Source: Escherichia coli O127:H6 str. E2348/69
GTDB lineage: Bacteria > Pseudomonadota > Gammaproteobacteria > Enterobacterales > Enterobacteriaceae
NCBI RefSeq assembly: GCF_000026545.1
Contig: NC_011601.1
Length of the DNA: 64,000 nucleotides
Direction: 5' to 3' (one strand)
Position numbers: made by a program. Shown here piece after piece: positions 16,401 to 22,400 of the stretch. Within the stretch, counting starts at the first letter, position 1. The number at the start of each line of letters is the position of its first letter.

Positions 16401-19400
16401 GCGATGTATAACGTAAACCGTTCCGATAAAAGTAATACATCACATCAATTGGGAATTGGCGGTACTGCTCTGCAAGATAACAACCTGAGTTATAATTTAC
16501 AGCAAAGTTATACTGATAATAATGTGGGTTATGGTGCCAGCATGAATGGACGTTATCGTAGCTCAGTGGGTGAATTCGGTCTGGGATATAGCTATGATAA
16601 AAATAGTCGTCAGTGGAATTACAGTGCGCAAGGTGCGGTTGTTGCTCATGCTCATGGAGTAACATTGGGGCAATCAGTGCAGGATTCATTCGCGATCGTG
16701 CATATTAATGAGGGTGCCAATGTAAAAGTACAAAATGCGCAAGGCGTTTATACTGATTTTTGGGGAAACGCGATTGTTCCCAATATGACGAATTATCGAC
16801 ATAACGCTATTACTGTGAATACTCAGGGGCACGATAGTCTTGATATTTCTGATGCCACACAAGATGTTATTCCTTCGAAAGGTGCTGTTGTCGGTGTCGA
16901 TTTTGATGCACGTAGCGGAATGCGAGCCTTATTGACATTAGTCCATAATAAAGAACGCGTCCCCTTTGGGGCATTGCTGACATTAGGGAATAGCACAGCG
17001 ATTGTTGGTGAAGATGGAGAGGTTTATATTACTGGTGTGCAAGAATCAATGACATTTACGGTACAGTGGGGAAAAGAGATTAACCAGCAATGTACAGGAG
17101 TTATCACTGAACCAGAAAAATACACCACGGGTATCTATAAAGCCACAATGGATTGTCGATAACAAATAAGACAGGAACAAATAATGAAGCCAGGATTTGC
17201 CTCTTATATACGAGCATTATTGACCATAATATTTCTTAGCTGGGGCGTCATTCCTGCGGTTTTCGCCAGTTGCAATATTTCTGGAAATGGAGGAAATCCG
17301 GCAACAGTACAATTCTCCGCGCCTGCGTTGGTTGTTAATAGCGATGCCGTTCCTGGAACGATTATTGCGACAGTAAATGCGAACAGTCCTTCAATTTCAG
17401 TTTCCTGTACGGCAAATGGTGAGATCTGGCAAGGATATACCGTATTGACAAACGGTGATAAGCGTACTGATAACCCACTTACAGATGTGTTTCAGACTAA
17501 TGTGCCAGGAATCGGTTTTCGTGCCGCGTGGGCGAATAACACCAGTGCGCAACTCACCGCCGGATCTTTAATGACGCCCTGGCATAAAGGCTCGTCAACA
17601 GTGATTAAAGGATATGTTTATCCGATTACAATACATGCAGCTATTCAGTTTATTGTCACAGGACCTGTCGGTAATGGGACCATTGATACCAGCAAACTGA
17701 TTGCTGACTGGAAGTATGACAATCGTGTTATTGGAGAGCTTCGTTTTAGTTCCGTTCCGGTCAATATTCAACCGGGCACATGCGACCTTATAGAAAAAAA
17801 TATTACCGTTCCGCTCAACGATATTGGCACAGATGATTTTGATGTTAACAATGTGTCACCTGTAGTTTCTGACGATAGGTTTAAAATTCAGATTGAAAAA
17901 TGCTCGCAGGATGTAAAAGTTGATTACCGCTTTACTTCATCAGGCTCTACGGGGATAACGGGTAATAGTATTCTTAATATTGAGTCCGGTTCCGGAATGG
18001 CAGAAGGTGTTGGTCTGCAGATCCTGGACAGTAGCAACAATGTAATGGTATTTGATTCAGACTATACAGCCATTCAAAAAACGACGTTGAATCAAAATAT
18101 TACTATTCCTTTAAAAGCACGTTACATCAAAACGGGTAGCGTTAAAAGTGGTCGCGTTAATTCTGTCGCTACCTTCGAAGTGTATTACCGATAAGCTTTT
18201 CCCTTTCTCGTGAATGTTAGTGTTTTGTAAGCATGTTTTTATGCATTAGAGCGATGATACTAACATTTTCGATTCATCTGGTTGTTTATTAACCCTTCAG
18301 GAACGCTCAGATTGCGTACCGCTTGCGAACCCGCCAGCGTTTCGAATATTATCTCATCTTTATAATAATCATTCTCGTTTACGTTATCATTCACTTTACA
18401 CCAGAGAAATACCAATGGCGCGTTCCAAAACTGCTCAGCCAAAACACTCACTGCGTAAAATCGCAGTTGTAGTAGCCACAGCGGTTAGCGGCATGTCTGT
18501 TTATGCACAGGCAGCGGTTGAACCGAAAGAAGACACTATCACCGTTACCGCTGCACCTGCGCCGCAAGAAAGCGCATGGGGGCCGGCTGCAACTATTGCG
18601 GCGAAGCACTCTGCTACTGCGACTAAAACGGATACACCAATTGAAAAAACGCCGCAGTCCATTTCGGTTGTGACCCGGGAAGAGATGGATATCAAACAAC
18701 CCGCAACGGTAAAAGAAGCTCTGGATTATACGCCAAGTGTCTTTTCAACGCGTGGTAGTTCAACAACGTATGATGTTGTTTCTATACGTGGATTTACTAC
18801 AGCCAGTACAGTAAATACTAACCAATATCTGGATGGCTTAAAACTTCAGGGGGATAACTACTCTGAAGCCTCTATTGATCCTTATTTCCTTGAGCGTGTG
18901 GAATTACTCCGTGGCCCAGTATCCGTACTGTATGGTAAAAGCCATCCGGGCGGAGTAGTGAGCATGGTAAGCAAACGGCCTTCAACGGATCCGATTAAAG
19001 AGATCCAGTTCAAAATGGGAACGGATAATCTTTGGCAGACCGGATTCGATTTTAGTGATGCAATAGATGATGATGGCGTTTGGTCATATCGTTTGACGGG
19101 ATTAGGACGTAGTCAGGATGCGCAACAAAAGTACGCAAAAACTACAAGGTATGCAGTAGCTCCCTCATTCAGTTGGCGTCCTGATGATAAAACGGATTTC
19201 ACTTTCCTGAGTAATTTCCAGAGTGATCCCGATGCGGGCTATTATGGTTGGTTACCGCGCCAGGGAACTGTTGTTCCCTATCAGGATGCAAATGGTAGCT
19301 GGCACAAATTGCCAACAGATTTCAATGAAGGCGAGAAAGATAATAAGATGTCTCGTCGTCAACAATTAATTGGCTACAGTTTTGCTCATGAATTTAATGA

Positions 19401-22400
19401 TACTTTTACTGTACGTCAGAATCTGCGCTATACCCGCATTCATACACTCTACGATGCAGTATATGGCAATGGTTACATCGCGCCAGCGCAAATTAGCCGT
19501 GCTTATGTACGTTCAGACGAAGATTTAAATTCGTTTACTGTTGATACGCAACTACAGTCCAACTTTGCTATCGGTGCTGTAGCGCATACTTTGCTTACTG
19601 GCGTGGATTACCTGCGAATGCGTAACGATATTGATGCAAACTATGGTACTGCTAATCCGATTAGCATGACGGATCCACAGTACGGTAACGCCAATATCAA
19701 TATCAATTTCCCATATGCGGTAATTAACCGTCAGGAACAGACAGGCCTTTATATTCAGGATCAGTCTGAGTGGAATAAGTGGGTATTGACGCTGGGTGGT
19801 CGTTACGATTTTGCGAAAACCTCTACCTATACTCGTTCAACGAGTTCTTTGGATGAAATTAACGATCAGCAGTTCACCTGGAGAGGTGGTATTAATTATC
19901 TGTTCGATAATGGTATTTCACCTTATTTCAGTTATAGCGAATCCTTCGAGCCAGTATCTGGAGCGACTAAAGAAGGTAAACCGTTTGATCCTTCTCGCGG
20001 TAAGCAGTACGAAGCAGGTGTCAAATACGTACCAAAAGATACGCCTGTCACTGTCACTGCCTCGGTATTCCAATTAACGAAAGACAAAAATCTGACTGCA
20101 GATCCAAGTAATACTTTGTTTAGCGTACAAGGGGGGGAGATTCGTTCTCGTGGCTTTGAGATTGAGGCCAAAGCAGCTGTCAACGCTAATATCAATGTGA
20201 CTGCGGCATACAGCTACACCGATGCTGAATACACCAAAGATACACTGTACAAGGGTAAACGCCCGGCAGAGGTCCCCCGAAATATGGCTTCGCTGTGGGC
20301 AGATTACACTTTCCACGAAACAGCTCTTAGTGGTCTGAGTCTTGGTGCAGGGGCACGTTATTTTGGCGACACCTCAAGTTTCTACACTACGGGTGATAAG
20401 ACCAATCAGACATTCAATGTTGGGGGGTATACCTTAGTTGATGCAATGATAAAATATGATCTTGCTCGTTTCGGTATGCCTGGTTCTTCTGTTGGTGTTA
20501 ACGTAAATAACCTGTTCGACCGCGAATATGTCTCCAGTTGCTATCGTGATTATGCATGTTACTGGGGCGCAGAACGTCAGGTCGTTGCAACCGCAACCTT
20601 CCGTTTCTAATTTCTCTTTTGGGGCACGGATTTCCGTGCCCGTTTCACAAGTTGGCTGTTATGCAGGAATACACGAATCATTCCGATACCACTTTTGCAC
20701 TGCGTAATATCTCCTTTCGTGTGCCCGGGCGCACGCTTTTGCATCCGCTGTCGTTAACCTTTCCTGCCGGGAAAGTGACCGGTCTGATTGGTCACAACGG
20801 TTCTGGTAAATCCACTTTGCTCAAAATGCTTGGTCGTCACCAGCCACCGTCGGAAGGGGAGATTCTCCTTGATGCCCAGCCGCTGGAAAGCTGGAGCAGC
20901 AAAGCGTTTGCCCGCAAAGTGGCTTATTTGCCGCAGCAGCTTCCTCCGGCAGAAGGGATGACCGTGCGTGAACTGGTGGCGATTGGTCGTTACCCGTGGC
21001 ATGGCGCACTGGGGCGCTTTGGTGCGGCAGATCGCGAAAAGGTCGAAGAGGCGATTTCGCTGGTTGGCTTAAAACCGCTGGCGCATCGGCTGGTCGATAG
21101 TCTCTCTGGCGGCGAACGTCAGCGGGCGTGGATCGCTATGCTGGTGGCACAGGATAGCCGTTGTCTGTTGCTCGACGAACCGACCTCGGCGCTGGATATC
21201 GCCCACCAGGTTGACGTGCTGGCGCTGGTGCATCGTTTAAGTCAGGAACGTGGTCTGACGGTCATTGCCGTGCTGCACGATATTAATATGGCGGCGCGCT
21301 ACTGTGATTATCTGGTCGCCCTACGCGGCGGTGAAATGATTGCTCAGGGAACGCCTGCGGAAATTATGCGCGGCGAAACCCTCGAAATGATTTATGGCAT
21401 CCCGATGGGTATTCTGCCGCATCCGGCGGGTGCTGCACCTGTGAGTTTTGTTTATTGATGAGCGGCTTACCTCTTATTTCGCGCCGCCGACTGTTAACGA
21501 CGATGGCGCTTTCTCCGTTGTTATGGCAGATGAATACCGCCCACGCGGCGGTTATTGATCCCAATCGTATTGTGGCACTGGAGTGGTTGCCGGTGGAGTT
21601 ACTGCTGGCGCTCGGCATCGTGCCTTACGGCGTGGCGGACACCATCAACTATCGCCTGTGGGTCAGCGAACCGCCATTGCCGGACTCAGTGATTGACGTT
21701 GGTTTGCGTACAGAACCCAACCTTGAACTGCTGACCGAAATGAAACCGTCGTTTATGGTCTGGTCGGCAGGATATGGCCCTTCACCAGAAATGCTGGCAC
21801 GTATTGCGCCGGGGCGCGGATTTAACTTCAGCGACGGCAAACAGCCACTGGCGATGGCGCGTAAATCACTGACGGAAATGGCAGATTTACTTAACCTGCA
21901 AAGCGCAGCAGAAACGCATTTAACGCACTATGAAGACTTTATCCGCAGCATGAAACCCCGCTTTGTGAAGCGTGGTGCACGCCCGTTATTGCTGACGACG
22001 CTTATCGATCCGCGCCATATGTTGGTCTTCGGTCCAAACAGCTTGTTCCAGGAAATTCTCGATGAGTACGGCATCCCAAATGCCTGGCAAGGGGAAACCA
22101 ACTTTTGGGGCAGTACCGCCGTCAGTATCGATCGTCTGGCAGTGTATAAAGACGTTGATGTGCTCTGTTTTGATCACGACAACAGCAAAGACGTGGATGC
22201 GCTAATGGCAACCCCGCTGTGGCAGGCCATGCCGTTTGTTCGCGCCGGACGCTTTCAGCGCGTTCCGGCGGTCTGGTTCTATGGTGCGACGCTTTCTGCA
22301 ATGCACTTTGTGCGTATTCTGGATAACGCCATCGGAGGTAAAGCGTGAGTAAACGAATTGCGCTTTTTCCGGTGTTATTGCTGGCGCTGCTGGTGGTTGC

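Follow-up and report, generated by a model that had tools for sequence, protein, structure and literature searches.

In Escherichia coli K-12, FhuA is the receptor for ferrichrome and albomycin, for the phages T1, T5 and phi80, and for colicin M and microcin J25; its ligands include antibiotics of the albomycin, or 'Trojan horse', type. Three structures of the K-12 protein served as references (PDB 1BY3, 2FCP and 8A8C). In the study by Wang, Chen, Hu, Zhu, White and Koster (Wang et al., 2018; Infect Immun 86:e00573-18; 10.1101/320069), E. coli FhuA is divided into four clusters, E1 (the K-12 type) to E4, and E4 is grouped with FhuA from other Enterobacteriaceae as 'Group II'. In the numbering of that study, E4 carries insertions at Indel 1 (~297-300) and Indel 2 (~699-703) and is without the insertions that E1 and E2 possess at Indel 3 (~361-383) and Indel 4 (~459-465), a pattern explained there by exchange between species after the species had separated (Wang et al., 2018). 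Here, we describe the fhuA gene in a stretch of 64,000 nucleotides (the window) from E. coli O127:H6 strain E2348/69, the reference enteropathogenic E. coli (EPEC) strain. We consider it very probable that this gene encodes an intact FhuA of the E4 class, that most of it constitutes an old allelic cassette exchanged within E. coli by homologous recombination, and that the cassette gives the receptor an altered outer surface.

The E2348/69 protein is no different in kind from E4 and is a member of it. Matched by position and content, it has insertions of 4 amino acids in extracellular loop L3 and of 5-6 amino acids in L10 relative to E1, E2 and E3, while its L4 and L5, which are 21 and 9 amino acids shorter than those of K-12, are devoid of the long E1/E2 insertions. 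Like E4, it clusters with FhuA from other Enterobacteriaceae, apart from the K-12 and Salmonella types. By its sequence, then, this fhuA is the E4 / Group II class already described, which will not surprise specialists; since the class is published, the practical value of the present allele lies in testing rather than in discovery. What is added to the 2018 study is the exact borders of the divergent segment, its frequency (90 of 5,426 genomes), its AT-richness, its independence of a neighbouring fimbrial islet, the failure to find any donor, and a parallel dimorphism with the same borders in Enterobacter hormaechei. In the accessible text of Wang et al. (2018) and of later papers from the same group the term 'GC content' does not occur, the terms 'breakpoint' and 'donor' are absent from that of the later one, and the passages available from these papers make no mention of the islet.

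Those later papers carry the cluster idea to other porins (Chen et al., 2022; AEM 2025, PMC12175518). The fhuA gene resembles the mosaic genes of OmpC, OmpF, OmpA and LamB in having a few discrete types at a fixed locus, in the spread of these types across phylogroups by local recombination, and in the concentration of variation in the extracellular loops. It differs from them in the size of what is exchanged, which is almost all of the gene (89% of the coding sequence) rather than short loop segments, and in that the classes stand 38% of bases apart, far deeper than typical within-species porin variants.

The fhuA gene of E2348/69

The window matches NZ_CP059840.2 at 100% and is thereby identified as E2348/69. 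In the RefSeq annotation, the gene order is hrpB-mrcB-[islet]-fhuA-fhuCDB-hemL, with fhuA as the first gene of the fhuACDB operon. The complete coding sequence, established from the open reading frame (ORF) and its translation, occupies 18415..20610 on the plus strand and specifies 731 amino acids, as compared to 747 in K-12; its product is named ferrichrome porin FhuA in RefSeq (WP_000124388.1). Against the NCBIfam equivalog for FhuA (NF007465), the protein scored 1328.6 bits (cutoff 803), with residues 1-731 aligned to profile positions 1-726. The next-best family, FoxA, reached 598 bits against a cutoff of 1300, and in this profile search no equivalog family besides FhuA passed its own cutoff with the E2348/69 protein. 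The solved FhuA chains 8a60, 1by3 and 2fcp align to residues 34-731 with an E value of about 1e-288, a match that covers the plug and the 22-strand barrel, and the domains PF07715 and PF00593 are found on the representative of the protein cluster that is 98% identical to it. The TonB box near the mature N-terminus (EDTITVTA) is the same as in K-12.

The same fhuA DNA is present in three independent O127:H6 assemblies. The divergence described below is far beyond chance and is no assembly artefact, and judged by its sequence the allele is real and functional-looking. A pseudogene or artefact was considered as well and was ruled out by the intact ORF and by the occurrence of the identical protein on 362 contigs.

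Upstream, the promoter and 5' untranslated region (18262..18414, plus strand) begin where the islet ends. The K-12 intergenic sequence can be aligned from TTCATCTGGTTG onward, and the promoter is almost identical to that of K-12 (97-100% in 60-base windows from ~18270). Fur regulates fhuA through this promoter region; a strict consensus search of the window at up to three mismatches found no Fur box. Downstream, fhuC, fhuD and fhuB, which encode the ABC importer (20661..24327, plus strand; RefSeq annotation), are ordinary E. coli sequence with 96.1% identity to K-12, and no additional ORF lies between fhuA and fhuC. The locus, operon, promoter, signal peptide and TonB box are those of K-12, and the mature protein is matched over its full length.

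A divergent cassette between conserved ends

A two-breakpoint likelihood scan against K-12 placed the borders of the divergent segment at 18604 and 20561. Within this cassette (18604..20561, plus strand; 1,958 bases), which begins at codon 64, ends 16 codons short of the stop and encodes the plug core, the barrel as far as the beginning of its last strand, and every extracellular loop, 731 of 1925 bases differ from K-12 (38%), as compared to 36 of 1291 outside it (2.8%). Along the locus, DNA identity to K-12 is 97-100% from ~18270 to 18603, roughly 30-80% in the interior, and 95-100% from 20562 through fhuC and fhuD. Over the whole cassette, identity is 63% to K-12, 96.3% to E. coli ZF31 and 99.7% to E. 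coli AST85. Both junctions lie within the fhuA reading frame, with K-12-like DNA immediately outside them.

The conserved 5' segment (18415..18603, plus strand) comprises codons 1-63, with the signal peptide, the TonB box (DTITV) and the N-terminal periplasmic stretch. All 63 residues equal those of K-12, with a single silent difference at 18585, and in each of the four allele classes this segment has the form typical of E. coli; other genera differ. The conserved 3' segment (20562..20610, plus strand) consists of the last 16 codons and the stop in K-12-like DNA, and there are no differences from K-12 between 20562 and 20641. A preliminary description of this DNA had proposed a divergent, AT-rich fhuA allele with K-12-like ends, and in this it is borne out by the borders, by the difference counts and by the GC contrast given below. 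The two lengths, the two peptides that it quoted from E2348/69 and K-12, and the identity of the first ~63 residues were likewise correct. It was slightly generous in extending the match to the last ~25 residues, among which 19 are identical and only the last 15 (WGAERQVVATATFRF) form an unbroken match; as for the divergent span, given as 18600-20530, the left end was right and the right end fell about 30 bases short.

The cassette has a GC content of 0.442 and a GC content at third codon positions (GC3) of 0.380. The neighbouring genes have a GC of 0.550 (mrcB), 0.565 (fhuC), 0.542 (fhuD) and 0.597 (fhuB), in agreement with the earlier remark that the interior is more AT-rich than fhuC and fhuB. 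In E. coli, the GC3 of these four neighbours is 0.57-0.71, whereas that of the cassette is 0.55 in E1, 0.54 in E2, 0.40 in E3 and 0.38 in E4. The cassettes of Group I (the K-12 type) and Group II in E. hormaechei, at 0.58-0.64, similarly lie below their neighbours (0.68-0.77). The GC3 of the fhuA cassette was in fact below that of the neighbouring genes in every genome examined, with E3 and E4 as the extremes. Atypical composition is one feature of island type that the cassette displays; there is no tRNA gene in the 64-kb window and there are no mobility genes near the cassette. A second stretch of low GC (0.44-0.45) lies at positions 1-4000 of the window.

Distribution of the cassette within E. 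coli

Among 5,426 complete E. coli genomes, 3,690 carry an E1-like cassette (at least 95% identity to that of K-12), about 1,070 an E2-like one and 563 E3, while E4, counted when matched over at least 80% of the cassette length, was found in 90 (1.7%). Of the best E4 matches, 13 stand at 99% or more to E2348/69 and 78 at about 96%. The E4 cassette is always single-copy and chromosomal. Conversion from a paralog was considered and excluded, as each carrier genome has one copy and both E. hormaechei classes occupy the same locus. Some plasmid-labelled records match the fhuA region, in six places with a 2.6-kb probe and in three with the K-12 cassette.

The right border (20561/20562) is common to all four classes, and the left border (18604) is common to E1 and E2. 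E3, as represented by strain 1EC187, equals E4 over the first 71 cassette bases (18604-18674, with one difference at 18660) and diverges thereafter; because of this match, the classes are slightly mosaic at their 5' edge.

The identities of cassette and flanks conflict in two instructive pairs of genomes. The urinary isolate uk_P46212 is the nearest to E2348/69 in fhuC and fhuD (98.2% over 1529 aligned bases) and is 99.0% identical to it in mrcB, but the cassettes are only 61.7% identical. Conversely, AST85 differs from E2348/69 in its flanks (~95% identity; synonymous divergence, dS, 0.17-0.25 in mrcB and fhuCDB), but shares its cassette at 99.74% (dS 0.009). Because of this conflict, the pattern reads as the signature of recent homologous recombination within the species in which nothing but the cassette was replaced. 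Three further features are those expected of homologous exchange, namely the stepwise change in identity, flanks that are collinear and typical of the species, and the same cassette in unrelated backgrounds. The class itself appears to be old. Between the sub-types represented by E2348/69 and ZF31, the cassette dS is 0.145, similar to the flank dS of 0.13-0.25 among E. coli lineages; therefore, E4 would have been in E. coli for about as long as the compared lineages have been diverging.

FhuA in other genera

No sampled organism is the donor of the cassette. In a search of 5.8 billion protein clusters, one cluster was 98% identical, labelled E. coli with one Shigella flexneri and one 'Enterobacteriaceae' member, and the next best stood at 86%, the level at which Trabulsiella, Enterobacter kobei, Scandinavium, Pseudescherichia and others match. 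A scan of 100,044 species, each represented by one genome, found nothing outside E. coli with a cassette protein more than 84% identical. The best DNA identity outside E. coli was at most 74%, and the GC3 of these relatives is 0.49-0.80; a Buttiauxella entry was dropped from this comparison, since its 41.7% DNA identity is impossible with 84% protein identity and probably reflects a frame problem in the assembly. Thus, no near-identical copy was found in a donor taxon in either search, the best matches being 84-86% in protein and at most 74% in DNA.

In a neighbour-joining tree of cassette proteins, E4 stands among ordinary Enterobacteriaceae FhuA, with 83-86% identity to those of Trabulsiella, Enterobacter, Cedecea and Klebsiella and 61-65% to E1-E3. 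E1, E2 and E3 form a separate long branch, 59-66% identical to the FhuA of the other genera compared. The preliminary description had spoken of a replaced allele, and while the divergence is real, that view has to be reframed: it is the E2348/69 type that resembles ordinary Enterobacteriaceae FhuA and the K-12 type that sits on the long branch, and the databases searched hold no donor. When cassette distance was regressed on FhuC/FhuD/FhuB distance for 190 pairs of other genera (r = 0.72), the distances from E4 to 20 genera fitted the line, with z between -1.4 and +1.4; for Enterobacter cloacae, for example, the cassette distance is 0.163 and the FhuCDB distance 0.172. Because these 20 distances sit on the regression line, E4 behaves, by its sequence distances, like a gene that diverges together with its species.

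The K-12 type is likewise found beyond E. coli, at 88-93% in Salmonella, Citrobacter, Buttiauxella, Lelliottia, Klebsiella, Leclercia and many Enterobacter. E. hormaechei possesses both. A K-12-type gene lies there at hrpB-mrcB-fhuA-fhuCDB-hemL, and the type strain of E. hormaechei subspecies hoffmannii has a Group II gene in the same place. In 60-base windows, the flanks of these two loci agree at 93-100%, mostly at 97-100%. Identity is ~60% in the cassette, which spans about 2990-5010 in one (locus L014) and about 6190-8210 in the other (locus L091), with junctions no more than ~20 bases from those of E. coli on both sides. The E. hormaechei Group I gene is 73-85% identical in DNA to that of K-12, as are the flanks. 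All of these distances suggest that both classes look old in both genera. They appear to fit old, co-diverging lineages at least as well as they fit the exchange between species put forward in 2018 and, with two genera compared, a long-maintained polymorphism would be at least as likely as repeated exchange between species.

Predicted consequences at the receptor surface

E2348/69 and K-12 FhuA are identical at about 66% of ungapped columns, with 40 columns gapped. Identity is 100% for residues 1-62, 66% in the rest of the plug, 75% in the membrane strands, 67% in the periplasmic turns and 51% in the extracellular segments. The last contain all of the large indels, in line with the many loop indels remarked on in the preliminary description, and are the most changed; the altered phage and bacteriocin susceptibility that it suggested is thus a reasonable prediction. 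L3 has gained 4 amino acids and L10 5-6 (TSSFY). L4 has lost 21 residues and, with them, Y325 and the C318-C329 pair, whereas the C692-C698 pair is retained. L5 retains 36% identity and is 9 amino acids shorter. In L8, the K-12 motif DPEGSFF reads DPSNTLF, which includes the change F557L. An AlphaFold2 model from a 30-sequence alignment had a mean predicted local distance difference test (pLDDT) score of 48, too poor for use, and was left aside.

In the structure of the T5 protein pb5 bound to FhuA, the loops EL4, EL5 and EL8 carry 23 of the 27 hydrogen bonds, and EL8 is the sole loop whose deletion strongly affects T5 (PMC9586334). For several phages that use FhuA, a role in attachment has also been ascribed to L8 residues D552-F558 and to Y325 (PMC10373560). 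With L4, L5 and L8 heavily changed in E4 and these loops providing the main T5 contacts, poor recognition is predicted, and it is likely that phages and toxins adapted to K-12 (T5, T1, phi80, colicin M and microcin J25) would bind E4 poorly or not at all. For ferrichrome the prediction is different. Judged against a list of site residues taken in part from papers, R81, Y116, Y244, W246 and Y313 are retained in E4, F391 and F693 are both replaced by Y, and G99, Q100 and Y315 are changed, the alignment having an indel around 99-100. Q100 is reported to be conserved in other FhuA proteins (PMC11357680). Uptake of ferrichrome is probably retained.

A very different FhuA surface is thus predicted for ~1.7% of the sequenced E. 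coli, E2348/69 as the EPEC reference among them, and a third class is found in ~10% more. Phage cocktails, receptor-based host-range predictions and siderophore-drug conjugates designed on K-12 FhuA may fail on such strains.

Origin of the cassette

The reading that we prefer, the exchange of an old cassette within E. coli, could account for these observations in the following way. A cassette from an allele lineage unlike that of K-12 would have been set between ends typical of E. coli, and those conserved ends, which hold the promoter, signal peptide and TonB box at the 5' side and the last strand and fhuC at the 3' side, would provide the sites of homologous recombination between lineages. 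The cassette would not be borne by a mobile element. The E4 lineage would be about as deep as E. coli itself, with no donor among the sampled organisms. Its protein would import ferrichrome through TonB and FhuCDB, while the shorter L4, remodelled L5, altered L8 and longer L10 of its outer face could allow escape from phages and toxins, and selection by these agents plausibly maintains several classes. A number of points weigh against this account. The GC3 of E4 (0.38) is below that of the E. coli flanks (0.57-0.71) and of every sampled Group II relative (0.49-0.80), which long residence in E. coli hardly explains and an unsampled donor could. Besides such a donor, reduced GC-biased gene conversion may be the cause, if the classes have grown too divergent for recombination. 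With regard to function, the loop boundaries follow the K-12 topology and were checked only on the residue anchors quoted in PMC9586334 and PMC10373560. Within the ferrichrome pocket of E4, Q100 aligns with V and Y315 with N, and transport of ferrichrome by E4 is assumed. The literature yielded no phage, colicin, microcin or albomycin experiment on the E4 allele.

Several other origins were weighed. A recent horizontal import, in which fhuA from another genus replaced a native K-12-type gene in the E2348/69 lineage, would agree with the atypical composition (GC 0.44 and GC3 0.38, against a flank GC of 0.54-0.60) and with the grouping of the protein with FhuA of Enterobacter, Cedecea and Trabulsiella instead of K-12. 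We nevertheless regard it as quite improbable, as the donor was not found among the 100,044 species genomes and 5.8 billion clusters, the two E4 sub-types are already 0.145 apart in dS within E. coli, E4 is found in E. coli strains of unrelated background, and both junctions fall within fhuA, with neither mobility genes nor a tRNA gene nearby. Introgression could also be ancient, from an unsampled or extinct, AT-richer lineage of enterobacteria at the time when E. coli radiated or earlier, and the allele would have persisted at low frequency from then on; only the earlier home of the lineage sets this apart from the preferred reading. The low GC3 of E4 and E3 (0.38-0.40, against 0.54-0.55 in E1 and E2) and the gap between the 98% and the 86% protein clusters speak for it. 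The protein distances, however, put E4 inside Enterobacteriaceae proper, which is not known to include a low-GC genus, and the cassette GC3 is below that of the flanks in every genus examined, so that low GC may belong to the cassette as such and not to a donor genome. An ancient introgression seems to us rather unlikely. Divergence in place, by point mutation under positive selection on the loops, is hardly credible. The loops are indeed the most divergent part, and earlier dN/dS scans had counted fhuA with the genes under positive selection (Chen 2006 and Petersen 2007, cited through later papers), but the plug (66%), strands (75%) and periplasmic turns (67%) have diverged as well, the 38% difference in bases sets in and ends abruptly at the two borders, and the same cassette recurs in unrelated backgrounds.

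The preliminary description had also raised the possibility that the allele arrived together with the islet of four chaperone-usher fimbrial genes that stands between mrcB and fhuA, which lies outside the cassette (13050..18255, plus strand; GC 0.40; RefSeq annotation). The two are adjacent and both AT-rich (GC 0.40 and 0.44), but import as one segment is very improbable and the suggestion did not hold up. In the 5,426 genomes, the islet was found in 571 and E4 in 90, and they are adjacent in four records; 86 of the 90 cassette genomes are without the islet at this place, 567 of the 571 islet genomes have another fhuA class, and the nine closest relatives of the cassette (99.3-99.5% over the matched part) lack the islet. 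Moreover, ~340 bp of K-12-like DNA with the promoter and 5' coding region (18262-18603) separates them. Because they rarely co-occur and this stretch stands between them, the islet and the E4 cassette are independent. Finally, the cassette could be a balanced polymorphism older than the enterobacterial genera, with at least two deep classes, Groups I and II, kept at the same locus and junctions in Escherichia and in Enterobacter and each co-diverging with its host. We put this forward tentatively, as a possibility with somewhat less than an even chance. If true, the E2348/69 allele would be the retained, ordinary Enterobacteriaceae ortholog and K-12 FhuA would belong to an aberrant lineage; the classes would owe their persistence to phages and colicins, and the lack of recombination between them might explain the drift toward AT. 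The question of interest is thus that of old alleles which span genera with fixed junctions, the reference K-12 allele possibly being the odd one out.

The fimbrial islet and its surroundings

A probe that spans the end of the islet and the cassette was covered in only four records, which are the three O127:H6 assemblies and one pig isolate. For the other E4 carriers listed, the match begins at window positions 18257-18273, where the islet stops. In AST85, E200086, ZF31 and L73, mrcB is followed directly by the E4 fhuA, and the islet carriers uk_P46212 and LS4 have the E2 allele. The suggestion that the region marks a recombination hotspot finds some support in the four fhuA classes with the same borders and in the presence or absence of the islet in E. 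coli and E. kobei.

The islet of E2348/69 is itself unusual. Its chaperone gene (about 13925-14642) is frameshifted, and this version of the islet is rare, with matches of at least 99% in only four records; a ~92% version is present in 564 genomes. The two versions share 90% identity in the major subunit, 95% in the usher and 94% in the adhesin. In E. kobei (locus L094, positions 1-6000), too, mrcB and fhuA are separated by a chaperone-usher operon of four genes in the same order, with proteins 42-61% identical to those of the E. coli islet and a GC of 0.54 as compared to 0.40. The gap between mrcB and fhuA may be an old fimbrial site that has been recurrently filled or variably retained. In strain BLSE177-2012 (NZ_OZ369168.1), the match is confined to the first 58% of the islet and the final quarter of a fhuA of the E2 type, and the fhuA remnant is annotated as a 'TonB-dependent receptor domain-containing protein'; this looks like a deletion that fused the islet to a shortened fhuA.

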